A stretch of 64,000 nucleotides of DNA from an uncultured Acidobacteriota bacterium. Its GTDB lineage: Bacteria; Acidobacteriota; JAQAZP01. The position numbers and the translations under genes are program-made. This document shows positions 2 to 39,214 of the stretch, piece by piece (within the stretch, counting starts at the first letter, position 1; every line of letters starts with the position of its first letter). The stretch spans positions 256,001 to 320,000 of the forward strand of contig CAWIIB010000009.1 in the NCBI GenBank assembly GCA_963836075.1, given 5' to 3'. Under the pieces are notes generated by a model. It was not told the origin of the DNA and ran no database searches. It saw only the letters and a program-made list of their open reading frames with translations.

Positions 2-2335
2 GAGGCCTGGCGGATCCAACACCTCCTCGACGCCGAATCACTGTTTCAGCAGATGGTCTCTGCTCCAAACCATATCGACCCCCCACTGTTCAACCTGATC
101 ATCTACCTGCTGGCCCAGGTCCACAACACCGAACTGGTCCTGCGGCTGGCCTCGATCATTCCCGGCGTACTGGCCATCCTGATGGCCTGGCTGGTGGGCC
201 GGCAGCTCTTTGCCGGAAGGTGGCTCCCCCTGTTCAGCGCCTTCCTCGTCGCCTTCTCCCCCTGGATGACCATCTTCTCCAAGGAGTTGAAGCCCTATGC
301 TCTCGGCGTCCTGGTCCACATGACCGTTCTGTACGGGATTCTGCGCTACAGCAGGACCCCCACGGCAAGAGCCACCGCGACATTCACCGGACTGTTGATC
401 CTCGCCCTCTTCTTTTCACCGAACATCGTCTTCGCCTACCCCGGGATCTGCATCGCCATGCTGGCCATGGCCCTGAGGACCGGCACCCGGCGGAGAATAG
501 TCGAGGCGCTCGCCGCCGGCACGGCCCTGCTGGCCGGCTCCGCCCTCTACTACATAGCTTTTCTTCACGGCTCCGTCTACGAGCAGTCCTTCAATCCCCG
601 GACCTCCTTATGGTTCTGCCCGCACGAAACGGTTGCCGCCGCGGTCGGCTGGTTCTTCCGCCGCTACCTGGGGTTCTACTCGAAGATGGCCTTCACCGAC
701 TATTCGCTCTTCGAAGGCGTGGGAGCCTTCCTCGAGATCCTCTATCCGCTGATGGCGCTGGCCGGCGCGGCTCTCGTCCTTTTCTGGAGCCGCCGGCGCT
801 TTCTCCAGCTCTTCTGCCTCTTCCTCATGCCAATCCTGGCCATGGTTCCGTTCAATATTCTCAAACTGTGGCCCTTCGGTCCCCTGCGGATGAACCTCTT
901 CCTGATGGTCTACATCATTTTTCCGCCACTGATCCTGCTCGACCAGATACAGAGGAGCCGTTCCCGGTTTAGTCGATATGTCCCGGTGGGGCTGGCGGCG
1001 GCACTGCTGATGGCCCTGCAGTTCCCCATCCACTTCGGCGACTATTCCAGCAGCCGGGTGACCATGCGCCGATCCGCCGAAGCCGTGATCAACATCATTG
1101 AGTTCAACCCGGCTGATCCGCCGATCCCACTGCTGATCAACAGGCTGGGCGAGCCGTCCTTTACCTACTACAGCCGGCACCACCAAAAGGTGTCCAATCG
1201 TTTCGGCGCATGCGCCGGGGTGTTCGAACCTCGGGTGCTCGCCAGCCGGGACAGCCCCCTCTACACCACGGGGGAGCTGCTGCGGGAATGCCAGAAAAAC
1301 AGGCAGGTGGCCATCTACGTAAGCCAGTACAACGAGCACGACCGGCTTCTTTTCAAAAATGACTTCAGCATCGATCACCACTCATTCGACGCACGCAACG
1401 TCCACTCCTGCATCCTCCACTCGGAGATCGCGGGATACGAGGAGAGCCTGCGGCCCCTTTTCTCGAGCAAACGGTTCACCGGGGACAGCAAGGAGTGGAA
1501 GGTGATCTACCGGTCGCCTCCGCTACCGCTCACCGATCCCCAGCCCGGCGCCCTGGTGATTGTCAACTTCGATCTAACGTTCAAGTCGCGAGGAACTTCA
1601 ATCCAATTCCGGTTCATCGACCAGGACGGCTCGCCGAAACCGTTTGCACCGTCCATCATCCAGAACACCACACCGGGACTTCCACGCCGGATCGAATCGG
1701 CGGTGTACACAAAAATCAAACAGCGGCCAGGAACGGTGAGTCTGGAGATCGCAGCCAGCGGCAGCTACAATTTCCTGCTGAAGAACGTGAATTGCTTCAT
1801 GACCAGGACCGAAACTCCAAAGCCGGCCATCGGCCCCGGCACCTGCCAACTCCGTGCCGGAGACAGGACTCGAGTCCTGGGAGCGCTGACATCACTGGAT
1901 GGCTTCTGGCCTGACGATAAGCACACCTTCGGTTGGACCACGGGCGACACGCTGATCAGATTCGATGACCTGGCCGTATCCCCCGAGGACACGGTGCTGA
2001 TGCTGAAGACCTTTGGCTGGATGCCGCCCGGATGGAGAAACGAGATGAACCGCAACGGGCTTAGGGTCTACCTCAATGGCGACCGGCGGGCCCGTTTTCT
2101 GGGACCGGGAGGGGACCCGGTGCGATACTATTACTTTGAGATCCCGTCCGGAATTCATACCATCAGGACGTTGCGGATCATCTCGAACACCTTCTCGCCC
2201 AGAAAGCTGGGCATCAGTGATGATGCACGGGACCTGGGCATCGACCTGAAGTCTGTACAGTTTCCGGCAATGGCGCAAACGGCCCCCGTCCCGCGCAATG
2301 TTTCCACAGCAGGTGGAGAGAACACTCCATCATAG
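2..2335 (+). CDS. GT-C fold (ArnT/PMT-like) membrane glycosyltransferase, 5' end outside window
   Basis: Frame is open from base 2 (EAWRIQHLL..., matching DEAWRMQRLL of the paralogue). Contains PPLF and SKELKPY motifs, many TM helices and a C-terminal extracytoplasmic region ending DARDLGIDL. Confidence 0.75.
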   Translation, partial: EAWRIQHLLDAESLFQQMVSAPNHIDPPLFNLIIYLLAQVHNTELVLRLASIIPGVLAILMAWLVGRQLFAGRWLPLFSAFLVAFSPWMTIFSKELKPYALGVLVHMTVLYGILRYSRTPTARATATFTGLLILALFFSPNIVFAYPGICIAMLAMALRTGTRRRIVEALAAGTALLAGSALYYIAFLHGSVYEQSFNPRTSLWFCPHETVAAAVGWFFRRYLGFYSKMAFTDYSLFEGVGAFLEILYPLMALAGAALVLFWSRRRFLQLFCLFLMPILAMVPFNILKLWPFGPLRMNLFLMVYIIFPPLILLDQIQRSRSRFSRYVPVGLAAALLMALQFPIHFGDYSSSRVTMRRSAEAVINIIEFNPADPPIPLLINRLGEPSFTYYSRHHQKVSNRFGACAGVFEPRVLASRDSPLYTTGELLRECQKNRQVAIYVSQYNEHDRLLFKNDFSIDHHSFDARNVHSCILHSEIAGYEESLRPLFSSKRFTGDSKEWKVIYRSPPLPLTDPQPGALVIVNFDLTFKSRGTSIQFRFIDQDGSPKPFAPSIIQNTTPGLPRRIESAVYTKIKQRPGTVSLEIAASGSYNFLLKNVNCFMTRTETPKPAIGPGTCQLRAGDRTRVLGALTSLDGFWPDDKHTFGWTTGDTLIRFDDLAVSPEDTVLMLKTFGWMPPGWRNEMNRNGLRVYLNGDRRARFLGPGGDPVRYYYFEIPSGIHTIRTLRIISNTFSPRKLGISDDARDLGIDLKSVQFPAMAQTAPVPRNVSTAGGENTPS

Positions 2336-17321: not shown

Positions 17322-17996
17322 TTAGCGATAGGATTCGAGGAAGAGCGCGTTACGAGCAGGAGCGAAGGTCACCCGCCGCTGACGCAGCAGCTCGCCGCCG
17401 ACGAGGATGTCGGCGCCCATGGCCTGGAGGCCCAGGCCGAGCATCCCCGGCATGCCACCGAACTCGAGGTCCACCTGCTCACCGCCGATGTCAGCGGCCA
17501 GCCGGTGCACCGGCGTGTGGAACTCTCCCACAACCGGGTGGTAGTCGTCCCACTCCCCCACTTGGGGGCCGGTGGCCAGCAGCTCGCCGCCGATGTAACT
17601 GAGGGTGGAGCCGGTGTCCACGTATGCCCGCAGGCGCTTCCCGTCCACCTGCACCGGGACAAAGGGTGCGCCCTGGTAGAAGGCGGGGAGCAGCTCCACC
17701 GCCGAGCCCGCTGGTTGGGTGTCGCCCTCGTCAAAGGTGACCGTCATCCGCTGCGCGTCCACCGTGGTGGTGAACTGGTTGATGAAGTCGAGGCCCACCA
17801 GGCCGGCGGCCCAGGCGGGGAGAAAACGCTCGCCCACCATGGAGAGCAGGATGGCTGATGATCTCGCAGTTCGGTTGCAGAGCCGGACATCGGTGCCGAT
17901 GGTTGCCGGCGATCCGGTGTCCATGATGATGTTCCGGCCCTCGATGTCGCAGACCACGATTCCGTCCTTCCAGTGAAAGGGAATAGTCCATTTCAT
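17322..17996 (-). CDS. Double-domain retropepsin-like aspartyl protease
   Basis: Two DTGS motifs (IIMDTGSP, AYVDTGST), each followed by a GLVGLDF/ILVGGEL-type motif. GGAGG RBS. Confidence 0.8.
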   Translation of the reverse strand: MKWTIPFHWKDGIVVCDIEGRNIIMDTGSPATIGTDVRLCNRTARSSAILLSMVGERFLPAWAAGLVGLDFINQFTTTVDAQRMTVTFDEGDTQPAGSAVELLPAFYQGAPFVPVQVDGKRLRAYVDTGSTLSYIGGELLATGPQVGEWDDYHPVVGEFHTPVHRLAADIGGEQVDLEFGGMPGMLGLGLQAMGADILVGGELLRQRRVTFAPARNALFLESYR

Positions 17997-18388
17997 ATTG
18001 CACCTCCGATTCTGTTCAATGAATGCTGATTGCCAATGGCGGAGCGGGTTGCCGCCGACCCCGGAACAGCCTCTCGCGCGATCGCGAGGCTGGCGGCGTC
18101 CTGTCCGCTGACATGACCCACTGACGGCTCTGCCAGGCAAGTTTGTGACAGGACGAAATCAAATCACAACTTGTCAAGTTTGATCAAATTACCTGATGAC
18201 AACATGTTAACCAAGAAGCGTGAATCGGATACAATTAAACTGGATGTTGACATGGATGCCAACAACTTATATAAACATTAAAACCATTATTCTATAATGG
18301 TGTATTTTAACAATTCTAAACAATAAGTTGACAATCGCAGTGTATACTGCCTGCATAATTATCAAAATTGACTCATCAGGGGATCTAC

Positions 18389-19358: not shown

Positions 19359-19985
19359 GTGATTCAAACGAGCGACAATACAAACGACAGAACTCTAATT
19401 CAGAATGTGATTGACCGCGTTGAGGGGGCCAGCGATCTCTTTGTTGAAAAGTTCTCAAAATTCGTTTACTCCATCCTGCACAGGAACCTTGGTATAAAGC
19501 CTGACGTGGCGGACGATCTGCACAACCTGGTCTTCCTTAAGCTGTTCGAAGATGATTGCCGGCGGCTGCGCAACTGGAGAAGAGAAGGGAACTTTGTCAA
19601 CTACTTGGGTACCGTAACGAGAAATCTGGCCAACGACCACTTTTCCAAACTGAAGGTGTGGAGCGAAGTGTCCTTCGAGCGGCGTGATGACGAGGACGAC
19701 ACCGCCTGGGTTATGGACCCGGTGAGCACGGATCCCAGCCCGGAGGAAGTGGCAGCGGCAGCCGAGCAGCGCCGTCTGCTCTACCAGGCGATGGACAAAC
19801 TCTCGAAACGGGACCAGGAAATCATCCGCCTGCGTCATCTCGAGGAGAAGTCCTACAAGCAGATTGCTGAAGAGATGGGTTACACGATAGGCTCGGTTGG
19901 CAGTATAATTTCACGGGTGGAGAAGCGACTGAAGAAAATTCTGGACGAGCTCCTCAGGGATGATGGTCTGGCGCCGGCAATTTAG
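19359..19985 (+). CDS. ECF RNA polymerase sigma-70 factor
   Basis: Region 2 (ADDLHNLVFLKL, FVNYLGTVTRNLANDH) and region 4 (LSKRDQEIIRLRHLEEKSYKQIAEEMG). Confidence 0.9.
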   Translation: MIQTSDNTNDRTLIQNVIDRVEGASDLFVEKFSKFVYSILHRNLGIKPDVADDLHNLVFLKLFEDDCRRLRNWRREGNFVNYLGTVTRNLANDHFSKLKVWSEVSFERRDDEDDTAWVMDPVSTDPSPEEVAAAAEQRRLLYQAMDKLSKRDQEIIRLRHLEEKSYKQIAEEMGYTIGSVGSIISRVEKRLKKILDELLRDDGLAPAI

Positions 19986-20036
19986 CCATCACCCTGTCAG
20001 AATCATCGCCCCCTGCGCGTCCTGTAACCGAGAACC

Positions 20037-20918
20037 ATGAAACACGCAGCACCAGAACAGATCGTCGCTTTCCGCGACGGAGAGAATCTCGATCCCGAAG
20101 TCGCGGGCCACATCAGGAGCTGTCCCCTCTGCCGACGGCAGCTGGGGGAGGCTAGGTGGATGAGAACGCACACCCTGAGCCACATCCTGAAACCGCACGG
20201 CCCGAAACCGACTCACGATGAAATTGCCGCGTACCTCGACGAGGCGCTGGACGAGCGAGAGATGGAGCGGGTCGAAACCCACATTCGGTCCAACGACCAC
20301 TTCCTCGCCGTCTTTGACAAGTTGCTGATATTGAGCATGAAGCTGGAAGCTCCGCTCCCCAGCAAGGAGAGTTTGGAGAAACTTAAGGTACAGTTGCGCG
20401 GCCCCAGGTTCCTCGGCCGGCTGCGGGTCTTTTTCACCGATCGTTTCAAGCAGGTGTTCCATCCGGCCCGGACCAGTGAACCGGCACACGCACGGGCCCT
20501 GAAGATGCTGGCTGAAACGGACAGCCCGCTGCCCTGCATGGATGCGACCGCATATTCCGAGGAAAAACTCTCGGTCTGCGAGGACCGCGCCCTTGCCCCT
20601 CCTCCTCCGCCACCCGGGGCCTCCAATCCGCGGCTGATCGACACCGGCCGCTGGCTGATTCGAGCAGTGACCAGTGGTAGAAAGGGTGAGGCAATCCTCG
20701 AACTGGTGATCGAAGATGCAAAATCAGGCCAGCCGGTGCCCATGATACCGGTACGGCTGGAACCGGGATGGGAAGACCCGGTTCACGCCCGGACCGACGA
20801 AAAGGGTTCTGTCCGCCTCCCCCTGCCCGATGGAGACTCCCGCCTGGAGATCGGTAAAGGACCACAGATGGTCCTTGATATCAACGCCGACCTTGAAGCA
20901 GAACAACACCAGAAATGA
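20037..20918 (+). CDS. Soluble zinc-finger anti-sigma factor-like protein
   Basis: HIRSCPLC (HxxxCxxC), a second degenerate repeat (HIRSNDHF), a beta-rich C-terminus and no TM helix. Adjacent to the ECF sigma gene. Confidence 0.65.
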   Translation: MKHAAPEQIVAFRDGENLDPEVAGHIRSCPLCRRQLGEARWMRTHTLSHILKPHGPKPTHDEIAAYLDEALDEREMERVETHIRSNDHFLAVFDKLLILSMKLEAPLPSKESLEKLKVQLRGPRFLGRLRVFFTDRFKQVFHPARTSEPAHARALKMLAETDSPLPCMDATAYSEEKLSVCEDRALAPPPPPPGASNPRLIDTGRWLIRAVTSGRKGEAILELVIEDAKSGQPVPMIPVRLEPGWEDPVHARTDEKGSVRLPLPDGDSRLEIGKGPQMVLDINADLEAEQHQK

Positions 20919-20924
20919 TGTTTT

Positions 20925-20960
20925 GCGTTGATATACTACGCGATTGCGTGTTATAAACGC
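20925..20960. promoter_or_regulatory. Tandem operator, GCGT...ACGC x2
   Basis: GCGTTGATATACTACGC and GCGTGTTATAAACGC immediately before the ATG at 20963. Confidence 0.55.
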
Positions 20961-20962
20961 GC

Positions 20963-21568
20963 ATGAGCATGTTATCCGTCATCCTTTCCTCGAAGGCCAG
21001 GTCCAGCATTTTCCGTCTGTTATACGGATGCACCACGCCAGAGCTGCACAACCGTGAGATCTTTCGCCGGACCGGTCTCAGCGAGAGCGCCATTCGCCAG
21101 GAACTCGGCAAGCTGACCCAGTTGGGCCTGGTTTTGCGGCGAAACGACGGCAACCGGGTCTGCTACAGGGCCAACCGGAACCATCCGCTGTTCCCGGATC
21201 TGCGGCAGCTGGTCCTGAAAACCAATGGCCTGGTGGATGTGCTGAGGCCCCGGCTGTCCACCGCCGATACCCGGGTGGCCTTTGTCCACGGCCCGCTGGC
21301 CAGGTCGGAAGAAACCGAGAAGAGCGGTATCGACCTGCTGGTGATCGGCCGCATGGGTCTGACTGGCCTGACCCTGCACCTTGCGGGGATATCCGGTCAA
21401 CTGGACCGTGAGATCAGGCCCCAGGTGCTGACCGAAGCCGAATTCAGGATAAAGCAGGCTTCTGACCAGCAGTTCGTCCGCAGCATCCTTAACGGTCCGA
21501 AGATATTCGTTATCGGCGACCAGCGCGAGCTCGATGTGCTGGCGGAGAAGAGCGCCCAACCAGCCTGA
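20963..21568 (+). CDS. wHTH plus degenerate minimal nucleotidyltransferase (MNT antitoxin-like)
   Basis: AIRQELGKLTQLGLV...GNRVCY...HPLFPDLRQLVLKT. AFVHGPLARSEETEKSGIDLLVIG is a decayed GS...DxD motif. Confidence 0.75.
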   Translation: MSMLSVILSSKARSSIFRLLYGCTTPELHNREIFRRTGLSESAIRQELGKLTQLGLVLRRNDGNRVCYRANRNHPLFPDLRQLVLKTNGLVDVLRPRLSTADTRVAFVHGPLARSEETEKSGIDLLVIGRMGLTGLTLHLAGISGQLDREIRPQVLTEAEFRIKQASDQQFVRSILNGPKIFVIGDQRELDVLAEKSAQPA

Positions 21569-21666
21569 AGCCCCCCCTGTCATAAAACCTCTCCCCAGTC
21601 CGTCATGTGCTTATTACACGGAATCTTTGCCGGCAACGGCGCCGGCCAGCCCAAAGGAGAGGCATC

Positions 21667-22692
21667 ATGGCTACTATCAAAAAGACCCTCGACACGGTGG
21701 AGGTTGGCTCCCCCACCACATTCCGCAACCTGACCCTCTACCCGCTGATCCTCAAGGCCAAGGGGGAAAAGCCGGGCTACATGACCCTCGACCAGGGGCT
21801 TGCCGGCAAGTCGGTGAAGATCACCGAGGTCTCCGAGGGGGGCAGCGTGCCCGAGCTGCTGCTGCACAACAACGCCGACAAACCGCTGCTGGTGATCGAC
21901 GGCGAGGAGATGGTGGGCGCCAAGCAGAACCGGGTGATCAACCTCACCGTGATGGTGGATGCCAACACCAGGATCGTCATCCCGGTCTCCTGCGTGGAGG
22001 CCGGCCGCTGGCGCCACACCTCAACCGAGTTCGCCGCCTCGCCCCAGACGATGCACGCCTCGGGTCGAGCGGGAAAGATGGCCGGGGTCACGCGTATGAT
22101 GCATATGTCTGAATCCCGCGCCTCCGACCAGAGCGCGGTGTGGAACGACATCAGCGGTAAGCTGGACCGCATGGCGGCCTACTCCGAGAGCAGCGAGATG
22201 AAGGCGATCTACGACCGGCACCGGACCAGTATCGACGATTTTGTCCGCGCCTTCAGCCCGGTGGAGGGCCAGGCCGGCGCCATCTTCGCCATCGGCGGCA
22301 GGATCGCCGGCCTCGAGCTATTCGACCATCCGGATACGCTGGCCACACTGCTGCCTAAGCTGGTCCGCTCATACGCGCTGGACGCCCTCGACTCCCGCTA
22401 TGCCGGCGGTAACCAGGACGAGCGCAGCGAGGAGGAGAAGGACCTGCAGCTGGAAAGGGCCATGCTGTTCATCGCCTCGGTGGGTCTGGCCGAAGCCACC
22501 AGCCACCCGGCCATCGGCCTGGGCGAAGACATCCGGATCAGCAACAACGCCGTCACCGGCGCTGCGCTCACTGTTGACCAACGGCTGGTGCACCTCAGCG
22601 CCTTCCCCAACGAGGAGCAGGCCGCCACCGACGACCGCGGCCGCCACGGTGGGATGACCAGCGCTTCGATGCGGCGGGGATTCCGGCGGTAG
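21667..22692 (+). CDS. ARPP-1 / DUF6569 family protein
   Basis: ITEVSEGGSVPEL, IDGEEMVGAKQNRVIN, IPVSCVEAGRW, DQSAVW, LPKLVRSYALDA. Confidence 0.85.
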   Translation: MATIKKTLDTVEVGSPTTFRNLTLYPLILKAKGEKPGYMTLDQGLAGKSVKITEVSEGGSVPELLLHNNADKPLLVIDGEEMVGAKQNRVINLTVMVDANTRIVIPVSCVEAGRWRHTSTEFAASPQTMHASGRAGKMAGVTRMMHMSESRASDQSAVWNDISGKLDRMAAYSESSEMKAIYDRHRTSIDDFVRAFSPVEGQAGAIFAIGGRIAGLELFDHPDTLATLLPKLVRSYALDALDSRYAGGNQDERSEEEKDLQLERAMLFIASVGLAEATSHPAIGLGEDIRISNNAVTGAALTVDQRLVHLSAFPNEEQAATDDRGRHGGMTSASMRRGFRR

Positions 22693-25198: not shown

Positions 25199-25414
25199 CT
25201 ATTCAACCCCCGCTAAATCGTAGAGCTTCTCCGCATACCGCTCGATGATATCCCGCAGGGCCAGCTTCTCCAGCCACTGGGCCGGGATGCCATTCTCGCC
25301 GTAGAAGGCTCCAGCCAACTGGCCATACACGGCGCCGGTGGTGTCGGCATCGTCACCGAGGTTGACGGCCATGAGGGCGCCGCGAAAGCGGGAAAGAGTG
25401 CGGTCACTCGACAT
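25199..25414 (-). pseudogene. C-terminal fragment of an ADP-ribosylglycohydrolase
   Basis: AVNLGDDADTTGAVYGQLAGAFYG...IPAQWL, with no N-terminal half. Confidence 0.8.
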
Positions 25415-25511: not shown

Positions 25512-25853
25512 TTATAGCCGGCCCGTTCGAGCCATCAGCTTCGAAAACGTTATTATCCGCCCAATCGCCCTGTTGTCAGCACCAAGGGTGAGCAGGGAGC
25601 GGATGAGCAGATCGAGGGAAACCGTCGGATCACCGGCTTCCATCTTGGCCACCCGCGACTGGCTGGAGTTCATCAACCCGGCCAGCTCGACCTGGGTCAT
25701 TCTCATCATTTTTCTTCGGTCGCGAAGACTTGTGGCAAGGGCCAGCCGAAGTTCGGTGTAATCCCGTTCGTTCTTTGCCAGGCCGAGGGAGGCCCCAGCC
25801 TCACGATCACCCCGCGCCCCAGTATTTTTCCTCGCCCCCTGGTCCTTGCCCAT
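25512..25853 (-). CDS. XRE/HigA-like HTH antitoxin, orphan
   Basis: MTQVELAGLMNSSQSRVAKMEAGDPTVSLDLLIRSLLTLG. Confidence 0.8.
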   Translation of the reverse strand: MGKDQGARKNTGARGDREAGASLGLAKNERDYTELRLALATSLRDRRKMMRMTQVELAGLMNSSQSRVAKMEAGDPTVSLDLLIRSLLTLGADNRAIGRIITFSKLMARTGRL

Positions 25854-26382: not shown

Positions 26383-27630
26383 TCACCGCCGCTTGCCGCC
26401 AACCGGCCCGAGCGTCTGTTCGATCTCCTCGATGGTGGGCAGGGATGATTTCAGATCTTCGGGCAGGGCCCTGGTCAATTCGTACTCCGAGATGCCGATC
26501 GGTTTCTGGATCCCCCGCAGGGCATACTCGGCGATGAGCTTCTTCCTGTCCTTGCAGAGGATCAGCCCGATGGAAGGGCTGTCGGTGTCGTGCTTCAACT
26601 GGTCGTCCACAACGTTGAGGTAGAAGTTCATCTTCCCTTCATGATCCGGTTTAAACGGGCCGGCCTTGAGCTCGATAACCACGAAGCAGCGCAGCCTCAA
26701 GTGGTAGAAGAGCAGGTCGATATGGAACTCGTCCTCTCCTACGGTGAGCGGAACCTGCCTCCCGACAAAGGAAAAGCCCTTTCCCAGCTCCAGGAGAAAT
26801 CTCTGGAGGTGCCGGATCAGGCCGGCCTCCAGCTCCTTCTCACGAAAGGTGGTGTCTAGGGTCAGAAAGTCAAAGATGTATGGATCTTTCAGTGTCTGGA
26901 GCGCCAGGTCGGACTGGGTTGGGGGCAGGCTCGCCTCGAAGTTGGTGACCGCCTTCCCCTGGCGGAGGTGGGCCGAGTTCTTGATCATCTGCTTTAAGAC
27001 GCTATAGCTCCAGCCTTGGTCAATGATATGCGTCATGTACCAATGCCGGGCGCAAAGGTCTTTAACTGATTGAATCAATAAGATGTTATGGGACCATGAT
27101 AATTTCGCCAACAGTGTTGGCGAAATTGCTGGACGATCTTGGAGATTTTCAGTGGGGGAGGCTGAATTCAACTCACCTTCATCCCCAACGGATCCCTCCT
27201 CCAATTTCGCAAACGGTGTTTGCGGAATTGAGACATTAGAGACAAGTCGTTTTTTATCAATAGCTTGTAATTTCGCCACCAGCGGTGGCGAAATTGGTTC
27301 TCCTCGAGACCCTCCTTGATTTTTCGATTCCTGAAGCTGTCCAACGAATAGAGAGGGATACTCGAGATAAAACTGGAGCATCCTGTCAATATTGCGCTCA
27401 GAAAACCCCTTCAGTCCCGGCAGCTCATTCTTGAGATCCTTCGAAAGCCGGGGGATAACAGAAGTCCCCCACCCCTCCCTCGCCTGCCGCTCGGTAATCA
27501 GCCGGCCGATATCCCAATAAAGGGCCAGCATCTCCCTGTTTGCCGAGAGCGCCGCCCTGGCTTGTGCGCGGCCAATACGGGATTTGATCTCGCTGAGAAG
27601 CGAGGCGTATTGAGTAAGATCGTTGGTCAT
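26383..27630 (-). CDS. DUF1016 / YhcG-like PD-(D/E)XK nuclease
   Basis: LYWDIGRLI, GFSERN, LSWSHN, KDPYIFDFL, LLELGKGFSFVGRQ, IDLLFYHLRLRCFVVIELK. Confidence 0.93.
   Translation of the reverse strand: MTNDLTQYASLLSEIKSRIGRAQARAALSANREMLALYWDIGRLITERQAREGWGTSVIPRLSKDLKNELPGLKGFSERNIDRMLQFYLEYPSLFVGQLQESKNQGGSRGEPISPPLVAKLQAIDKKRLVSNVSIPQTPFAKLEEGSVGDEGELNSASPTENLQDRPAISPTLLAKLSWSHNILLIQSVKDLCARHWYMTHIIDQGWSYSVLKQMIKNSAHLRQGKAVTNFEASLPPTQSDLALQTLKDPYIFDFLTLDTTFREKELEAGLIRHLQRFLLELGKGFSFVGRQVPLTVGEDEFHIDLLFYHLRLRCFVVIELKAGPFKPDHEGKMNFYLNVVDDQLKHDTDSPSIGLILCKDRKKLIAEYALRGIQKPIGISEYELTRALPEDLKSSLPTIEEIEQTLGPVGGKRR
27101..27295. repeat. Three 27-bp coding palindromes AATTTCGC-N11-GCG(A/G)AATT
   Basis: Copies at 27101-27127, 27203-27229 and 27269-27295, inside the DUF1016 linker. 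Confidence 0.8.
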
Positions 27631-31798: not shown

Positions 31799-31827
31799 TT
31801 GCAATCCACTCTGATCTTTGATATGAT
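31799..31827 (+). promoter_or_regulatory. Sigma70 promoter for RNA leader A
   Basis: TTGCAA-N17-TATGAT with an extended -10 TG. The motif begins about 10 nt downstream. Confidence 0.7.
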
Positions 31828-31836
31828 TATTGGGTT

Positions 31837-31940
31837 GCGCCGATTTGATTTCAGCTTGCGGGCGCCATATAAATCCAGCTAAAGAGATGGGATCAGAATG
31901 TTTACCCGCTTTAGCGCACCAAGCTGAGGCGGGTTTTTTA
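31837..31940 (+). ncRNA. Unnamed structured leader RNA, copy 1, with terminator
   Basis: GCGCCGATTTGA-loop-TCAGCTTGCGGGCGC..ATAAAT..GCTAAAG, then ACCCGCTT...GGCGGGTTTTTT. Confidence 0.75.
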
Positions 31941-31993
31941 TTGCCCGGATTCAGCCTTCAAGGGGAGGACCAGCGGTCTCAACAGCAGAATAA

Positions 31994-32100
31994 GCGCCGA
32001 TTTGATTAATCAGCTTGCGGGCGCTCAAAACATACGGCTAAAGCGAGACTTGAACGTCTATCCAGCCCGCTTTGGCCCGTTCAGCCGGAGCGGGCTTTTT
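31994..32100 (+). ncRNA. Unnamed structured leader RNA, copy 2, with terminator
   Basis: GCGCCGATTTGATTAATCAGCTTGCGGGCGC..GGCTAAAGCG, then AGCCCGCTTTGGC...GCCGGAGCGGGCTTTTT. Confidence 0.75.
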
Positions 32101-32169: not shown

Positions 32170-33417
32170 ATGGCGAGAGCAGTTGAACTGGGACTGCCGG
32201 GGTACATGGGATTCGGTCGGCTGGATCACGGGTCGATCAGGATGGAGGGTGAGTGTCTGATCGGCAACTACCTGGCCGGGGAGGATCTGGTCTACGAGGT
32301 GACCGCGGGAGGTGACCAGGCGGCCATCGTTGAGTTCTATGACGGAACGATCATCGGCAGAACCGATGACACGAGCGTCGATGAAGCATTGATGCAGCAC
32401 TTCGGCGATGCCCGTCCCTACGCTCACCCGCGATTCGAGGACCTGTTCTATCGTGTTACCAGAGGGCGGAACATCCAGCTGAAATTCGCCGGTCCCTCCC
32501 GAATCGCGTATCACCCGGCGGGTTCCCTGTTCACCCTCGACCAGCCGATCCTGCCCGATCGGCGGCGAGCAGCGGATGATCTTTCTCGCATGATCACCGA
32601 CAGGGGGGCGGCGGCGCCGCTCAGGGAGTATGCCAGGTATAAGGGCTACCTCTTCCGCACAACGGCAGATCTCGACATCGAGATCGAAGAGATCGAGGTC
32701 CAGCGATATCTCACCCTGCTCGTCGACCTTCCGGATGCGGCCGACCTTCTCTGGAATTCCGGCATCGTTCCTCCGACGAAGGAATGGCGACTGGAAATCG
32801 CCGAAGTCCCCTTCGCCATCTCCGGTGAGATGACCGTGCTGCTGACCGGGCAGGGGAACGAATTCCTCACCTACGCCATCCTCGTCGATGACGGATCGCG
32901 TGAAGTGAACTTCGAGAATACGGCCAATTACTTTCGCCTGGCCTCCGAGCATCTGCTTGCGGAAGTCCAATACGGGCGAATTGACGAAGAGGAGGAAGGA
33001 GAGCAGGAATTCGGTACAGTGCCGGAGGACGAACTGGACCTCGAAGAGTGGGACCTATGCGAAGCCATTATGACTTTCGGCTCATGTGAACTCACACACT
33101 ATTGGGACACGGGCGGTATGGCCGGAGGCGGTGTCTCAAGCATCTACGAATACCAGGGCAAGTATTACCCGATCGTGGACGGAATCGTCCTCGGGCCCTA
33201 CCCGACCCTCGACGATGCCATTGATCAGAGCAACATGCTCGACGTGAACAGCGCGACGAAGGGCCTGCTTTCGTCGGCATTTCCCACGGATGAGCTCGCC
33301 CGTCGCTGTGTCGCCGACCAGGCCGGCATCGAGGCCCGAATCAATGGCCGGCGATACGCCGCCAACACGAGCGGCGATCTGCGATGCGTGGATGGAGACG
33401 AGGAAGATGAAGACTGA
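32170..33417 (+). CDS. Hypothetical acidic protein with C-terminal WD(S/T)GG...GPY domain
   Basis: ATG follows an AGGGAGG RBS. The C-terminal region aligns by eye with the 36128-37057 product. Confidence 0.75.
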   Translation: MARAVELGLPGYMGFGRLDHGSIRMEGECLIGNYLAGEDLVYEVTAGGDQAAIVEFYDGTIIGRTDDTSVDEALMQHFGDARPYAHPRFEDLFYRVTRGRNIQLKFAGPSRIAYHPAGSLFTLDQPILPDRRRAADDLSRMITDRGAAAPLREYARYKGYLFRTTADLDIEIEEIEVQRYLTLLVDLPDAADLLWNSGIVPPTKEWRLEIAEVPFAISGEMTVLLTGQGNEFLTYAILVDDGSREVNFENTANYFRLASEHLLAEVQYGRIDEEEEGEQEFGTVPEDELDLEEWDLCEAIMTFGSCELTHYWDTGGMAGGGVSSIYEYQGKYYPIVDGIVLGPYPTLDDAIDQSNMLDVNSATKGLLSSAFPTDELARRCVADQAGIEARINGRRYAANTSGDLRCVDGDEEDED

Positions 33418-33437
33418 TCATCGAGGGGGAAAGAGAA

Positions 33438-34187
33438 TTGTCGACCGTCCTGCACATCCCCCACAGTTCAAGGGTGATCCCCGCCGACCTGAGGGATCCA
33501 TTCCTGCTTTCCGACGAGGAACTGGCGAAGGAGCTCGCCGTGATGACCGACCACTTCACCGACGAGCTCTTCGCCGGCCCCCCGGCCGCAACAACGGTGG
33601 TCCGGTTCCCGGTGAGCCGGCTGGTGGTCGACCCGGAGCGCTATCTCGATGACGCCCTCGAGCCGATGGCGGCACGAGGGATGGGGGTGGTCTACGAGCG
33701 GACATCCGATGGAAAGCAACTGCGCCCTTCGCCAACGCGGGCAGAGCGCATAACGTTGATCAACCGCTTTTACACGCCGCACCACACGGCCCTGAATTCT
33801 GCCATCGAGAAGGCGCTTGGGGAAAGCAGCGCTTGTCTGCTGCTGGACTGCCATAGCTTCCCGTCGACTCCAATCCCCTGCGATCTGGACCCGATGACAG
33901 ACCGGCCGGATATCTGCCTGGGAACGAGTCCGTCCAATACACCTGGCTGGTTGGTGGAGCAAGCCCAGGAGATTCTGGGATCCTGCGGGCTCACCGTGGA
34001 AACTAATCGGCCGTATTCAGGAGTGCTCGTTCCCGAGAGATTCGCAAACGACAATTCAAAAGTGTATGCACTGATGATCGAAATCAATCGCCGCCTGGTA
34101 CATGGACGAACAATCGGGGGGCAAACTGCATGCCTTCCCGGACGTGGCCGCAACAGTTCAGAGGCTGATTCACAACCTGATGAATGA
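33438..34187 (+). CDS. N-formylglutamate amidohydrolase family protein (3' end may be frameshifted)
   Basis: LHIPHSS, MTDHFTDELF, SRLVVDPER, LLDCHSFPS, RPDICLGT, NRPYSG, MIEINR. Confidence 0.9.
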   Translation: MSTVLHIPHSSRVIPADLRDPFLLSDEELAKELAVMTDHFTDELFAGPPAATTVVRFPVSRLVVDPERYLDDALEPMAARGMGVVYERTSDGKQLRPSPTRAERITLINRFYTPHHTALNSAIEKALGESSACLLLDCHSFPSTPIPCDLDPMTDRPDICLGTSPSNTPGWLVEQAQEILGSCGLTVETNRPYSGVLVPERFANDNSKVYALMIEINRRLVHGRTIGGQTACLPGRGRNSSEADSQPDE

Positions 34188-34286
34188 AACGCGAATCCGC
34201 GATCAGCCGTCGCACATATATAGTGGTTCGAGAGGAAGCGCGGAAGTGGTGTCCTGCGCACCGGGCACCCGGTCCCCCCGATTCAC

Positions 34287-35138
34287 TCACTGGGCTATGC
34301 CATCGTCCTCATCATCCTCAACGTCATCGTAGTCCTCGTCTTCGCTGTCATGCAGTATATCCGCCGCCATGTCGATGGCTTCGGACGCAGCGGAAACGAT
34401 GTCTTCATCATCCGAGTCGAGGAAATCGCCGAGGGCCACCGTGGCCTGCTCCGGGCGGATGGCGGCAGCCGCTTCGATGGCGGCGAGCAGCAGGTCCTTG
34501 TCCATGACTTCGTTGGAGAGGATATCGGTAATCAGCGGCCAGGCGTCGGCCACTGGCCAGCTCCCCGCGGCCTCGGCGGCCTCGATCCGCAGATCCCGGC
34601 TGCCGTTGGCCAGCGACTCGAGGATCTGAACTTCGAAACCGTTGATGTACTGCATACAGAAAACGGCGGTCAGCTTCCAGGCCATATCCTCTTCGGCATA
34701 GGCGGCACGGACCGCGTCCGCATGCCAGTCGCGCGGGGCCCGCACCGAGGCCTCCAGGCAGTGGCGACGGACGATCTGCGGTGCGCTGTCATCGGCGTAC
34801 AGGTCATGGAGCCTCTCCTGGATCAGCTGGAACCTGGTCCAGGAAAACGGCGCGTCCTCGAAATCATCCTCGTCCTCCAGGTCCGCGGCCTCGAGGGGCG
34901 GGCCGAATGCGATCGCCGCCCCGGCGCGCAGCTCCTCCGGCTCGGTTTCCCTGCATAAGATATCGAGGAGGAGGCCGGCGAGCCTGTCGTTGATCACGGT
35001 GTATTCCCCGGCCAGACTCACCGCGATAAGGCGGTCTGCTATATCAGCACGCTTGTCCCGCAGAATATCGTATAAAAACCCGTCGGTATCGGATGGCCAG
35101 TTCCAGGGCCGCGATGCTTGCAGTTGTCTCAGGTTCAT
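34287..35138 (-). CDS. HEAT-repeat-like acidic protein
   Basis: Repeated helical motifs (LRAGAAIAFG, VRRHCLEAS, LRIEAAEAAG, DEDIVSAASEAI). Confidence 0.7.
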   Translation of the reverse strand: MNLRQLQASRPWNWPSDTDGFLYDILRDKRADIADRLIAVSLAGEYTVINDRLAGLLLDILCRETEPEELRAGAAIAFGPPLEAADLEDEDDFEDAPFSWTRFQLIQERLHDLYADDSAPQIVRRHCLEASVRAPRDWHADAVRAAYAEEDMAWKLTAVFCMQYINGFEVQILESLANGSRDLRIEAAEAAGSWPVADAWPLITDILSNEVMDKDLLLAAIEAAAAIRPEQATVALGDFLDSDDEDIVSAASEAIDMAADILHDSEDEDYDDVEDDEDDGIAQ

Positions 35139-35345
35139 CTGGTGCTGCCTCAATTAAGTGCGCTGCCTGTCTTGCAGCGACTCGTGTCCCGGTGCTTGAC
35201 GTGATTGATGACCCATTCGGTGATCGTCCGGTCTCCCCGCCGCTCAGGGCCCGGTCGGTCCCGGCCCGTAAATACGGCAACGCGGAAATGGACAGGAGAA
35301 GATAGCCGAAATCGCTAAGGTTTGCCAGTGGAAAATGCGGCGGGC

Positions 35346-36131
35346 CTATGCCAGCCCGGAGGACCGGTGAAGCCGCTCGGCACAGCGCTCGATGACATCT
35401 GACAATTGGTCGTCGAGATACCCGAAGACCCTCTCCTCGATGCTCCCGGGCACGCCGCCGAAAAAGGCCTCAGCGATCCCCCCGGCGATGCAGGCCACCG
35501 TGTCGCTGTCCCCGCCGAGGGAGACCGCATTGCGGATTGTATCCTCGACGCTCCCCGACAACAGGAAGGCGGTGATCGCCTGGGGCACCGAGCCCGGGCA
35601 GGTGACATCGGGCGGGTAATCCTCCCGGATCCGCTCCAGCGAAAGGTTGAGGCGATAGCCGAACGTCGTGCCGATGTACTCCTGGATCCCGGCTTTCCCG
35701 GAGCCGGTCCGGGCCAGGAAAATTGCGGCAGCCACGGCCTGGGCGCCCTTGATCCCCTCGGGGTGGTTGTGGGTCACCCCGGCGCTCTTTCGCGCTTCAT
35801 CCAGCACTTCCTCGAGCGTATCGAAGGCCCAGCCCACCGGGCTGACCCGCATGGCCGACCCGTTGCCGAGGCTCCCGTAAGGTACCCCCTCGCGGGAGGC
35901 CCCCCAGCGCCTGAACATCGGCCCGTAGCCCCGCTCCGGATAGCGCCGGTAGTAGTCACGGTAGGCGGCAGCGTAATCGCCGCCGCTGAGAATAGCGTCA
36001 GCCGTGGCCACGGTGAGCACCGTGTCGTCGGTGAACCGGCACCCCTCCCCGAACAGCGGGAAGTCGGTGCGGTGGATGTTGTGCAGCTCGTAAATGCTGC
36101 CGATGATGTCACCGGCTATGGCGCCGATCAT
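35346..36131 (-). CDS. ADP-ribosylglycohydrolase (DraG/ARH family)
   Basis: GAIAGDIIGSIYE, FTDDT, GNGSAMRVSP, VTHNHPEG, SLGGDSDTVACIAG. Confidence 0.95.
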   Translation of the reverse strand: MIGAIAGDIIGSIYELHNIHRTDFPLFGEGCRFTDDTVLTVATADAILSGGDYAAAYRDYYRRYPERGYGPMFRRWGASREGVPYGSLGNGSAMRVSPVGWAFDTLEEVLDEARKSAGVTHNHPEGIKGAQAVAAAIFLARTGSGKAGIQEYIGTTFGYRLNLSLERIREDYPPDVTCPGSVPQAITAFLLSGSVEDTIRNAVSLGGDSDTVACIAGGIAEAFFGGVPGSIEERVFGYLDDQLSDVIERCAERLHRSSGLA

Positions 36132-37057
36132 GACTTTCCCCTTTTTAAAGAATCGATGTAATCGATGAGATCATCGTCGTCTTCCTTCCTCACGAAGATG
36201 CCGGGCTTCGTCCAGACGTATGGGATGGAGTTGAACCAGACTTCGTGGCCGAGCCGCTCGTCCTCCCCGTCCCCCTGGTAGTGCTCGAACTCGACTTTCT
36301 CCGCCAGCTCATCGGCATCGTGAAAACCGGACCCGATCTCGCCCGTGGCAGTGGTGACCGTGAGCAGGTCCCCCTCCACCGCTTCGTCCACGGTGTCGTA
36401 AGGCCCGAACAATTCTCCACAGTCACAGCAGGGGTAGTAGAACTTCCCCGCCAACTCGTACACCCACTCGACGCCGGCCCCGGCGCCGGGCCCCCCGCTG
36501 TCCCACTCGTGGCTGAACACGCCCTCGCCCTCTTCGGTGAGGACATCCAGAAAGGTCTCGTAATCGTGGAAGTCCGGATCGTTCTCGAGAAGCTCTTTCA
36601 GTTCATCCCCACTGGGGAAGACCACCGGTTCGTTCCGCCGGCCCTGACGTATGACCCGGTAAAAAGGACCCTCGCCGTCGGCGTTCTTCCCCGTAATGAT
36701 GTCCACGATTTCGTTCGGATCTGGCGGCGGCGGTTCTGGGGCCTGTTTTGGTAGCGGGGCGTACTGCTTGTAGTTTTTGTCCTTCTTCCGGCACTCGGCG
36801 CAGACGATCAGCAGGTTGGCAAAGAGCGAACTCCAGTGACCGACCCGGTTGTCCCTCTCGGAGTAAGAGTTGGATCCCGGACGGTTAACGGTGTGTTCAC
36901 CGCACTGCAGGCACGGGACGCCATGACAGATACAGGCGACACTGACCTCCATCTCCGGGTCCGGTTGGAAGCGATCCGAATGGAGATATCGAGCTTTTGT
37001 CGTGCCATTGAACTCGCCGCACACGTCGCAACGTTCAAATCCTGGTGGAATGCTCAT
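36128..37057 (-). CDS. Hypothetical protein, N-terminal Cys-rich zinc-binding region plus WD(S/T)GG...GPY domain
   Basis: CDVC, CICHGVPCLQC and CAEC. AGGGAGG RBS. Stop overlaps the ARG start (ATGA). Confidence 0.8.
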   Translation of the reverse strand: MSIPPGFERCDVCGEFNGTTKARYLHSDRFQPDPEMEVSVACICHGVPCLQCGEHTVNRPGSNSYSERDNRVGHWSSLFANLLIVCAECRKKDKNYKQYAPLPKQAPEPPPPDPNEIVDIITGKNADGEGPFYRVIRQGRRNEPVVFPSGDELKELLENDPDFHDYETFLDVLTEEGEGVFSHEWDSGGPGAGAGVEWVYELAGKFYYPCCDCGELFGPYDTVDEAVEGDLLTVTTATGEIGSGFHDADELAEKVEFEHYQGDGEDERLGHEVWFNSIPYVWTKPGIFVRKEDDDDLIDYIDSLKRGKS

Positions 37058-37134: not shown

Positions 37135-37231
37135 AGGCCCCGAACCGGCTGGATCAGGGCTAACGCGGGCAGGATTGCTCGCTTTAGCCGCATTTATTGA
37201 GCGCCCGCAATCTGAGTGGTCAAATCGGCGC
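37135..37231 (-). ncRNA. Unnamed structured leader RNA, copy 4 (terminator degenerate)
   Basis: Minus strand GCGCCGATTTGACCACTCAGATTGCGGGCGCTCAATAAATGCGGCTAAAGCG..CCCGCGTTAGC, with no U-tract. Confidence 0.7.
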
Positions 37232-37264
37232 TGTGTTCAATCTGTCGTGCTGATTCAGGGCATG

Positions 37265-37368
37265 AAAAAACCCGCTCCAGCCTGCGGGGCCAAAGCGGGT
37301 TCGAATGCCTATCCGATCGCTTTAGCGTAATTTATAATGCGCCCGCAAGCTGAGAATCAAATCAGCGC
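37265..37368 (-). ncRNA. Unnamed structured leader RNA, copy 3, with terminator
   Basis: Minus strand GCGCTGATTTGATTCTCAGCTTGCGGGCGCATTATAAATTACGCTAAAGCG, then AACCCGCTTTGGCC...GGCTGGAGCGGGTTTTTT. Confidence 0.75.
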
Positions 37369-37378
37369 AACAATATGT

Positions 37379-37407
37379 AATATAACTTCTTACAGTGATT
37401 TTGTCAA
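37379..37407 (-). promoter_or_regulatory. Sigma70 promoter for RNA leader B
   Basis: TTGACA-N17-TATATT on the minus strand, about 10 nt before copy 3. Confidence 0.75.
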
Positions 37408-38648: not shown

Positions 38649-38987
38649 TCAGGCTCCAATTATTTCGTTCAGGCCTTCGATCGTATTCGTAAGCTCTTCA
38701 GCTGTCGCCCGACCAAGGCGCCGGCCAATGCGCTCGATGGCCAATGTTCTTATCTGACTGATCTTGACCCAGGAACGCTTTGGCAAACCCTTGGATGTCA
38801 GTTCCAAGGTGAGGGGAAACCCGGCACGCGGAGGCTGGCTGGTGAGAGCAACGGCAATGACCGTTCCGGAACGTTCATTGAAAATATCCTGGCTCAGAAT
38901 CAGGACCGGTCGCTTGCCGGCCTGCTCATGTCCTCTGGCCGGATTGAGGTTTGCCCAACGGATATCTCCTCTCAATACTCTGGCCAT
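38649..38987 (-). CDS. mazF: PemK/MazF family toxin
   Basis: [32 protein letters not shown]. Confidence 0.92.
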
Positions 38988-39214
38988 TCACTCAACTCCT
39001 CGGACATGCCCTCTTCGGCCAGTGCTTTTTCAAAGTTCGGATCAAGTTTGGCACACTCAGCAGCAAGACGGTGCCTGCGGAGCCTGTCGAGCTTCTCTGA
39101 TACAGCTAATTGAATGGCTTGACTCCGGTTGTTGAAGATCTGTTCTTTGACCAGGCGATCAAGTTCTTCCAATGTCAACTGGTCAATGGTGATCGCGATT
39201 TTTGTTCTGCCCAT
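38972..39214 (-). CDS. CopG/RHH antitoxin
   Basis: KIAITID...[10 protein letters not shown]...ECAKLDP...WPEY, overlapping the toxin start. Confidence 0.88.

Follow-up and report, generated by a model that had tools for sequence, protein, structure and literature searches.

A 64,000-nt stretch of DNA from an uncultured Acidobacteriota bacterium (JAQAZP01; assembly GCA_963836075.1, contig CAWIIB010000009.1, positions 256,001-320,000 of the forward strand), hereafter referred to as the window, contains at 31.8-37.4 kb two operons on opposite strands whose first genes, designated gene A and gene C, encode the same alpha/beta domain, which is uncatalogued, about 125 residues long and strongly acidic and is referred to here as WDSGG. 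Gene A is followed on the plus strand by a gene of the N-formylglutamate amidohydrolase (FGase) family and gene C on the minus strand by an ADP-ribosylglycohydrolase (ARH) gene, and each is the first open reading frame (ORF) behind a leader with two aptamers that resemble the SAM-II class of S-adenosylmethionine (SAM) riboswitches. The reading that we tentatively prefer is that WDSGG may be a non-catalytic acidic binding module which partners hydrolases of small groups in an accessory system for damage reversal that SAM depletion would induce.

A sequence-only reading of the window had proposed that the two first genes share an unrecognised domain with otherwise unrelated N-termini, and had named the pairwise alignment beforehand as a possible refuter. 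The alignment of the gene A protein (P0001) with the gene C protein (P0002) by BLASTP, with composition-based statistics, gave a single significant segment (residues 308-379 against 181-254, 33/75 identical, 44%, E 8e-13), and all remaining segments had E >= 11, as expected for unrelated N-termini; the peptide strings that had been quoted for the two genes are present in both translations. A profile of the domain matched exactly two sites in the 6.2-Mb genome, which bracket the coordinates 33073-36530 given in the sequence-only reading and cover positions 1-126 (gene C) and 2-127 (gene A) of the 128 profile positions. The motifs that mark family membership (the W-D-[ST]-G-G...G-x-G hairpin, G-P-[YF] and I-N-G-x-x-W) are visible in both window copies. 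That two acidic, Gly-rich tails are alike by chance or composition, with no true domain behind them, is practically out of the question and is already refuted by the BLASTP result, the profile search (608 family members, 311 of them representatives with E <= 1e-10) and the confident common fold of the model described below, so that the shared domain is borne out.

The family profile was searched exhaustively with HMMER against 1.84 billion representatives (clusters at 50% identity) and returned 608 representatives at E <= 1e-3, of which 311 also pass E <= 1e-10 and 7 pass E <= 1e-30; a word-indexed search recovered only 8 relatives. Since about 111 of 150 among the matches listed are no longer than 170 aa (manual count), the usual form of the family is a stand-alone protein, and tandem domains (two matched stretches) were seen in 9/150 among the matches listed. 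In an alignment of 83 sequences Trp21 (99%), Asn112 (96%), Gly29 (95%), Asp22 (93%), Pro55, Gly13 and Val16 (90% each) are near-invariant, and Ser23 (83%) is Thr in gene A. The consensus reads G..V....WDSGGPGAGAG.E.VY...G.Y......G..GP...L..AL....L..VT.AT..I.....L...EL.........INGE.W.....G., and the hallmarks of the domain are an N-terminal helix, a beta-hairpin with a near-invariant W-D-[ST]-G-G-x-G-x-G loop, a G-P-[YF] turn, an A-T-x-x-I strand and a terminal I-N-G-x-x-W hairpin. The predicted acidic and modular character also held: both window copies have a pI of about 4.1, and the 83 members have a median pI of 4.29 (pI < 5.5 in 76/83) and a median net charge of -16.

The domain was indeed unrecognised in Pfam, NCBIfam, PADLOC and PHROGs: the first three gave no family for P0001 or P0002 at E <= 0.1, and in PHROGs neither these two proteins nor 7 stand-alone members had a match at E <= 0.01. 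Pfam matched nothing in 38 of 41 homologues; the matches of P0010 and P0061 were to their fused repeat partners only (TPR and HEAT, respectively), and the Filo_glycop match of P0025 (Pfam E 0.0078, sub-threshold, overlapping the domain) was taken as chance, as was the best PDB sequence match of the domain, a viral envelope protein (E 0.027). All of the database relatives (n=40) are unnamed or named 'hypothetical protein'.

An AlphaFold2 model of the gene C domain, built from an 83-row alignment, reached a pLDDT of 91.6 and a pTM of 0.82 and predicts the element order helix, four-stranded meander, short helix, strand, helix, three-stranded meander and C-terminal helix, with the WDSGG...G loop joining strands 1 and 2. 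Foldseek searches with the model gave a best E of 0.2 against PDB and of 0.088 against BFVD, and the ESM Atlas returned no usable match. As judged from the model no solved structure resembles WDSGG, which by the tools' own caveat does not prove a novel fold. A predicted complex of the gene C and gene A domains scored 0.26 and 0.17 against a mark of 0.32, without controls, and carries no weight either way. We consider it quite improbable that the domain is itself active or modified, that is, a small enzyme built on the W-D-S loop, or an acceptor or carrier modified on the loop Ser/Thr whose neighbouring hydrolases would be the erasers of that modification. The near-invariance of W21, D22, N112 and the Gly-rich hairpin, the Ser at position 23 (Thr in gene A) and partners that all remove small groups are in its favour, set against Gly or other residues at the Ser position in some members and the lack of any enzyme or carrier family that the domain resembles by sequence or fold.

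The leaders of both genes were searched with the Rfam covariance model RF00521 (SAM_alpha, SAM-II; gathering score 36 bits), and promoters were called by a sigma-70 consensus scan only, which found 4 sites versus 1.4 expected. The gathering score was passed by one of the four window aptamers (37301-37378), and the scan showed no clear T-run terminator behind the proximal aptamer of gene C (37163-37241). Tandem SAM-II-like leaders recur in a sister genome (G001) and at a metagenome locus (L022), and the nine aptamer copies from these and the window share the near-invariant core GCGCCGAUUUGA...CAGCUUGCGGGCGC...GCUAAAGCG. In the nine-copy alignment the aptamer strand GCUAAAG(CG) is complementary to the 5' arm of the next terminator, CGCUUUGG or CGCUUUAG. 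The layout appears to be the usual OFF-switch design, and we infer ligand and switching from it: with plentiful SAM the aptamer would hold the GCUAAAG strand and the next terminator would form, and with falling SAM this strand would pair with the terminator 5' arm and the operons would be transcribed. The genes so induced would be gene A with the FGase-like amidohydrolase, and gene C with ARH and possibly the HEAT-repeat gene behind it. Because the whole genome (94.7% complete) contains just one other RF00521 match, at chance level (E 0.97), and no match to RF00162 or RF01725, the operons of genes A and C are the only SAM-riboswitch cargo found in it, the methionine genes being included in the search. 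Sub-threshold matches to Bp2_287 (RF02424), a Burkholderia sRNA candidate, were observed antisense to the aptamers at 31801-31938 and 31967-32100 (-) and at 37265-37400 (+), with 21-36 bits versus a gathering score of 70; part of what this model describes may be a SAM-II-type leader in reverse complement.

Further loci of the family, 10 non-self loci from species genomes and 60 from metagenomes, were scanned with Rfam. All were found by the single peptide pattern WDSGG[PS][GF]AG and are thus a biased sample of the family; collapsing near-identical loci left 58 distinct loci. SAM-I/IV riboswitches were accepted when RF01725 reached its gathering score (41.1 bits) ahead of the domain gene and on its strand, and were found with 41.6-74.4 bits at L011 (equivalent to L061), L016, L037 (nearly so to L079), L055, L056, L058 (equivalent to L059 and L060) and L062. 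L022 carries a tandem SAM-II-like pair and encodes a domain protein 73% identical to gene C. A SAM riboswitch thus lies upstream on the same strand at 8 of the 58 distinct loci, at 8/40 loci whose upstream sequence extends to at least 500 nt and at 7/26 where it extends to at least 1000 nt. Other riboswitch classes were not found across the approximately 204 kb of loci, the remaining Rfam matches being tRNAs. In L016 (910-1167) and L056 (1723-2070) the SAM-I/IV riboswitch and the WDSGG gene are separated by a small ORF that is conserved between the two loci (81% identity over 85 aa) and has no Pfam match.

Behind riboswitch and domain gene the eight loci encode an FGase (L055), an ARH (L022), a PNP_UDP_1 protein (L037) or an ABC binding protein (L060), and L011, L016, L056 and L062 have no recognisable enzyme gene there; the domain gene is the common denominator of the riboswitch loci. 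A quick maximum-likelihood tree of 50 domain rows, from which ORF picking and a 70-position filter had dropped loci including the riboswitch-positive L016 and L055, requires at least 4 changes of the riboswitch label across well-supported branches, and riboswitch-linked rows occur in both of its major clades. The proposed co-occurrence of homologues with the leader RNA holds and extends far past this genome, in that SAM-I/IV switches, unrelated to the SAM-II-like ones, precede members in other phyla. Since two structurally unrelated SAM riboswitch classes precede the family in different phyla, the evidence argues strongly that the job of the domain matters when SAM is scarce.

What that job might be was considered from the neighbouring genes, which were identified by Pfam scans of the longest non-overlapping ORFs and by all-vs-all BLAST. 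In the latter the recurrent partners, listed together with the features of the window locus in Table 1, fall in mutually related clades. Defence or mobile genes were also seen at many loci.

Table 1. Features of the WDSGG locus in the window (positions in nt) and partner genes (FGase to AAA_5) and other neighbouring genes of the WDSGG domain at the window and other family loci.
Feature	Position or locus	Strand	Evidence or remark
Sigma-70-like promoter TTGCAA-17-TATGAT, TG extended	31799-31827	+	Consensus scan; directly before gene A aptamer 1
SAM-II-like aptamer 1, gene A leader	31827-31903	+	RF00521 30.7 bits, E 0.0011
Terminator-like hairpin, 12 pairs + T run	31904-31934	+	After gene A aptamer 1
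SAM-II-like aptamer 2, gene A leader	31984-32063	+	RF00521 33.5 bits, E 0.00019
Terminator-like hairpin, 13 pairs + T run	32064-32096	+	After gene A aptamer 2
Gene A (415 aa, P0001)	32170-33417	+	Orphan N-terminal module (about residues 1-253), acidic linker, C-terminal WDSGG domain
WDSGG domain of gene A (WDTGG variant), residues 295-414	33052-33411	+	Profile match E 1.7e-41
FGase-family amidohydrolase	33438-34187	+	PF05013 E 3e-50, 171.8 bits vs cut-off 28.9
HEAT-repeat protein	34287-35153	-	PF13646 E 8e-07; 192 bases downstream of ARH gene
ADP-ribosylglycohydrolase (ARH)	35346-36131	-	PF03747 E 1.5e-35
Gene C (309 aa, P0002)	36128-37057	-	Cys-rich N-terminal region, Pro-rich linker, WDSGG domain
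WDSGG domain of gene C	36167-36559	-	Profile match E 1.9e-54
SAM-II-like proximal aptamer, gene C leader	37163-37241	-	RF00521 29.0 bits, E 0.0033
Terminator-like hairpin + T run	37271-37288	-	After distal aptamer of gene C leader
SAM-II-like distal aptamer, gene C leader	37301-37378	-	RF00521 39.2 bits, E 5.6e-06
Sigma-70-like promoter TTGACA-17-TATATT (11/12)	37379-37407	-	Consensus scan; directly before gene C distal aptamer
FGase	window, L034, L055		Adjacent
FGase	L013, L072, L076		Fused N-terminally to domain
ADP-ribosylglycohydrolase	window, G001 (two), L022, L024, L047		
PNP_UDP_1	L037, L046		Directly downstream
Hist_deacetyl	L037, L047		
DUF3293	L009, L026, L012		With HD_4 in L026; fused in L012
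HD_4	L026, L081		
SAM synthetase (MetK)	L057, L081	same	Upstream; protein divergent in sequence in L057
HEAT	L030, L077, P0061		Fused
HEAT	window, G001		Neighbouring
TPR	P0010		Fused
AAA_5	L038, L067		
ABC substrate-binding protein	L060, L066		
Type I restriction-modification (R-M)	L007, L008		
YgjP peptidase	L071		
NERD + HNH-HIT	L035		
DUF499 + Zeta toxin	L014		
AAA_15/21 with QueC	L074		
Integrase	L057		
Transposase	L029		
YhcG nuclease	window, L022		
WYL regulator	L013		

Within the window the gene C stop overlaps the ARH ORF by 4 bases and the gap from the gene A stop to the FGase-family ORF is 20 bases, in agreement with the neighbours that the sequence-only reading had assigned. Judged by sequence, the first enzyme is assignable to the ARH superfamily only (PF03747), being neither a DraG nor a Tri1 equivalog (45.6 and 28.9 bits versus cut-offs of 337 and 490 for TIGR02662 and NF041672), and it falls in one clade with the domain-neighbouring ARH genes of L022, L024 and L047 (all-vs-all BLAST). 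The second belongs to the FGase superfamily (PF05013); it is no HutG equivalog (TIGR02017, 52.2 bits versus a cut-off of 278.75) and shares 44-51% identity with the domain-linked FGase genes or fusions of L055 and L013. The suggested association of homologues with such genes recurs at other loci for both enzymes, including three lineages of FGase-domain fusions.

The N-terminal parts of genes A and C are both separable modules. In the sister genome the gene A module is encoded separately (L005 2849-3679, 39% identity, E 1e-66), behind a shorter gene that carries the domain; beyond this copy no homologue was found in the word-indexed database, and a two-sequence AlphaFold2 model (pLDDT 48.7) was unusable. 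That it is a degenerate WDSGG copy was ruled out (hhalign probability 0.15 versus the domain profile). The Cys-rich part of gene C (residues 3-88) has a counterpart at L037, where a distinct 239-aa protein, whose gene immediately precedes the domain gene, has a similar C-terminus (31% identity, E 3e-5).

The distribution of the family is patchy. It was found in 2/61 related genomes (this genome counted), and neither in the other genome of the same genus nor in 58 genomes of the same phylum; it is present in 7/201 Planctomycetia-class genomes, and further genome matches came from Alphaproteobacteria, Burkholderiales, Rhodothermales, Spirochaetaceae and Planctomycetota. Plasmids and phages searched by tblastn with one sequence gave nothing, and IMG/VR searched with one peptide pattern gave 6 pattern matches and no relative. 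At L087, the locus of a Planctomycetia-class genome, Acido-Lenti-1 RNA (RF01687) was matched at 1969-2030 (-), at the 5' end of the WDSGG gene, with 37.3 bits versus a gathering score of 37. Between the window and G001 the island is rearranged, and the proteins diverge to very different degrees: identity is 89.6% for the HEAT protein, 82% for ARH, 49% for gene C and 36-39% for the parts of gene A, whose leader is 89% identical in DNA and whose coding region has no DNA match.

These data bear on a metabolic alternative, which we regard as doubtful, namely that the domain protein serves as enzyme, subunit or carrier in salvaging SAM, methionine or the products of their degradation. FGase-like and HDAC-like proteins would then free methionine from N-acylated forms, PNP_UDP_1 would be an MTA/SAH nucleosidase, and the domain protein would be an ordinary unannotated member of SAM-riboswitch regulons. 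Such a role would suit the two unrelated SAM riboswitch classes ahead of the family, the co-oriented MetK genes ahead of the domain gene in L057 and L081, PNP_UDP_1 directly downstream in L037 and L046, the ABC substrate-binding proteins of L060 and L066, and the loci at which the domain gene seems to be the main or sole riboswitch cargo (L016, L056, L062). It sits poorly with a family missing from one of two same-genus and 58 of 58 other same-phylum genomes and present in 7/201 of the Planctomycetia, with the fast divergence and domain shuffling between sister genomes, with defence-island and mobile genes as neighbours, with ARH, HEAT and TPR partners that have no obvious role in methionine salvage, and with a riboswitch that here governs this island alone, there being no SAM-riboswitch match elsewhere in the genome. 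In L057 the divergent MetK-like gene (1-1071; E 1e-19 for the C-terminal, 2e-9 for the N-terminal and 5e-5 for the central domain) is the third gene ahead of the WDSGG gene and has a phage-type integrase beside it. tRNA genes lie no more than a few hundred bases from stand-alone WDSGG genes in L008 (582-685), L048/L049 and L067 (47-119), and this proximity at three distinct loci would fit island insertion sites. For DUF3293 no paper was found in the open-access library searched.

According to the preferred damage-reversal reading, WDSGG would be the component that stays constant, presenting, mimicking or tethering a common target for a changing set of hydrolases, and these would strip off small groups (ADP-ribosyl, acyl or formyl, nucleobase, pyrophosphate). 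The whole would be a fast-evolving accessory system of damage reversal, of the ARG-centric kind discussed below, switched on by SAM depletion. The small-group erasers and defence-island neighbours fit the earlier idea of an immunity or damage-reversal module; the function itself, including the non-catalytic role, the use in conflict or repair, the ligand and the switching logic, we infer from sequence. Several observations weigh against it. A SAM riboswitch is lacking at 50/58 distinct loci, many of which have too short an upstream sequence, and at all of the seven further Planctomycetia-class loci (0/7), and three of the four window aptamers score under the RF00521 gathering score. At the riboswitch loci with no enzyme gene the domain can, by its gene content, act without a co-encoded hydrolase, and the ORF selection used for the neighbourhood scans may miss genes. 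MetK, PNP_UDP_1 and ABC binding proteins as neighbours suit plain SAM or methionine metabolism, and the near-invariant W-D-S and Asn with the Gly-rich loop would equally suit a catalytic or small-molecule site. Finally, no direct phage link is visible for the family in the single-query searches.

The closest described counterpart of the WDSGG loci would, by analogy, be the ARG-centric host systems, for which a role against viral ADP-ribosylation has been predicted (Iyer, Burroughs, Anantharaman and Aravind, Viruses 2022; PMC9503650). According to that paper, these systems comprise alarmone-type HD phosphatases, WYL regulators, REases, helicases, chaperones and ARPP, the 'ARG and Rhodanese-Phosphatase-associated protein' ARPP-1 among them; a Nudix- or WYL-HTH repressor occurs in over 42% and a coupled phosphatase in over 55% of the systems, so that both are frequent and not obligatory. 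Likenesses to the systems as described there are an ARG (PF03747 E 1.5e-35) without a linked ART or sirtuin at the window locus (neither was found among the five locus genes and 31 ORFs picked from 17-47 kb), variable and fast-evolving accessory genes, HD phosphatases (L026, L081), a WYL regulator (L013), REase-fold YhcG (window, L022), NERD (L035) and helicases, as well as an ARPP-1 gene 13 kb off and small uncharacterised proteins in the 'chaperone' slot. The WDSGG loci differ in being under SAM riboswitches and not Nudix/WYL repressors, and the ORFs scanned at the window locus yielded neither a Nudix/WYL repressor nor a phosphatase gene. The text of PMC9503650 does not contain FGase, formylglutamate, riboswitch, DUF3293 or S-adenosyl, and half of the WDSGG partners (FGase, PNP_UDP_1, HDAC-like, MetK) fall outside the system as described there. 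Because no Pfam model matches the domain, WDSGG may not be one of the TY-Chap families of that paper, a judgement by Pfam.

Several side observations concern the surroundings of the locus. The ARPP-1 protein (21607-22692; PF20208 E 2.4e-98), about 13 kb from the domain locus, is the last of a co-directional set at 19359-22692 with a sigma-70 gene (19359-19985), a zf-HC2 anti-sigma-like gene (20037-20918) and a weak HTH match (20963-21568). A 71-aa ORF at 25199-25414 (-) matches just the final 34 positions of the ARH model and is an ARH remnant; G001 has at the corresponding place a second, complete ARH (L005 5606-6559) with an HTH/Gp49 pair behind it, and in the window the remnant is followed by an HTH gene and a YhcG (DUF1016) nuclease gene (25512-25853, 26383-27630). 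A gene pair at 38649-39214 (-), which encodes a MazF/PemK toxin and an RHH antitoxin, seems to be missing from G001, where the DNA alignment stops at about 38650 and restarts at 39414. A UvrD-like helicase is also encoded in the window around the locus, and a 272-aa protein with no Pfam match at 17322-18140 (-) is similar to an ORF (L039 2-613) directly upstream of a WDSGG gene.

Compared with SAM riboswitch regulons (RF00521, RF01725), the family loci have aptamers with a conserved core upstream of the first gene on the same strand, terminator hairpins that overlap the aptamer 3' strand as in the usual OFF design, and MetK and an MTA-nucleosidase-family gene among the neighbours. They differ in their cargo, which is not methionine or SAM biosynthesis or transport but an uncatalogued domain with ARH, FGase and HEAT in a variable island, and in the tandem arrangement of the aptamers here, three of the four having their own terminator and three lying below the SAM-II gathering score. 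In the open-access library searched no paper was found that connects a SAM-II riboswitch with an ADP-ribosylglycohydrolase, a SAM riboswitch with an N-formylglutamate amidohydrolase, or a SAM riboswitch with defence genes.

Ocr, ArdA and the colicin and barnase immunity proteins are acidic inhibitor and mimic proteins. The WDSGG proteins are like these anti-restriction and immunity proteins in being small, very acidic, often stand-alone and sometimes tandem, and in lying near restriction or toxin genes, and it is conceivable, if improbable, that the domain acts as a nucleic-acid mimic or inhibitor that blocks a basic, nucleic-acid-binding, SAM-dependent enzyme. It would then relieve restriction as long as SAM is too low for methylation of the chromosome, or neutralise a toxin or phage protein. 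The extreme acidity at about 130 residues (median net charge -16, pI 4.29), stand-alone members beside type I R-M (L007, L008), YgjP (L071) and AAA_5 (L038, L067), and the tandem-repeat members (9/150 among the matches listed) point in this direction, and a role in protection from self-restriction would be in keeping with induction when SAM is low. The domain differs from these inhibitor and mimic proteins in its strictly conserved Gly-rich loop and in its fusions to hydrolases and HEAT/TPR repeats, and general searches, none aimed at Ocr/ArdA, gave no sequence or fold similarity to them.

The damage-reversal reading can be extended to the signal itself. Phage SAM lyases that deplete SAM are documented in a bioRxiv preprint on phage T3 and BREX and in PMC7877911. 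It is thus imaginable, though we rate it as unlikely, that the SAM riboswitch serves as a sensor of infection or attack, so that SAM lyases, MetK inhibitors or toxins that lower SAM would derepress a rescue cassette. This cassette would consist of WDSGG proteins, erasers (ARH, FGase-like, HDAC-like, HD, MTA-nucleosidase-like) and elsewhere a spare MetK, and the WDSGG domain would bind the attacked target or the attacker. If true, a metabolite riboswitch would here gate immune or repair genes built around a new protein fold.

With at least 608 clusters at 50% identity, WDSGG is a sizeable family that is named in no database and whose confident model has no match among solved structures, and it provides an annotation handle on hundreds of 'hypothetical' genes and on one clade of FGase-like and ARH enzymes. 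Its partners are not genes of methionine biosynthesis: they are erasers of ADP-ribosyl, acyl, nucleobase and pyrophosphate groups, together with additional SAM synthetases and repeat-based scaffolds, and most lie in variable islands of the defence type; in comparison with the ARG-centric systems the constant WDSGG component and the riboswitch control logic are new. If the link to the riboswitches holds, SAM riboswitch control would extend past methionine metabolism, and it would become a testable idea that cells read SAM depletion as an alarm.

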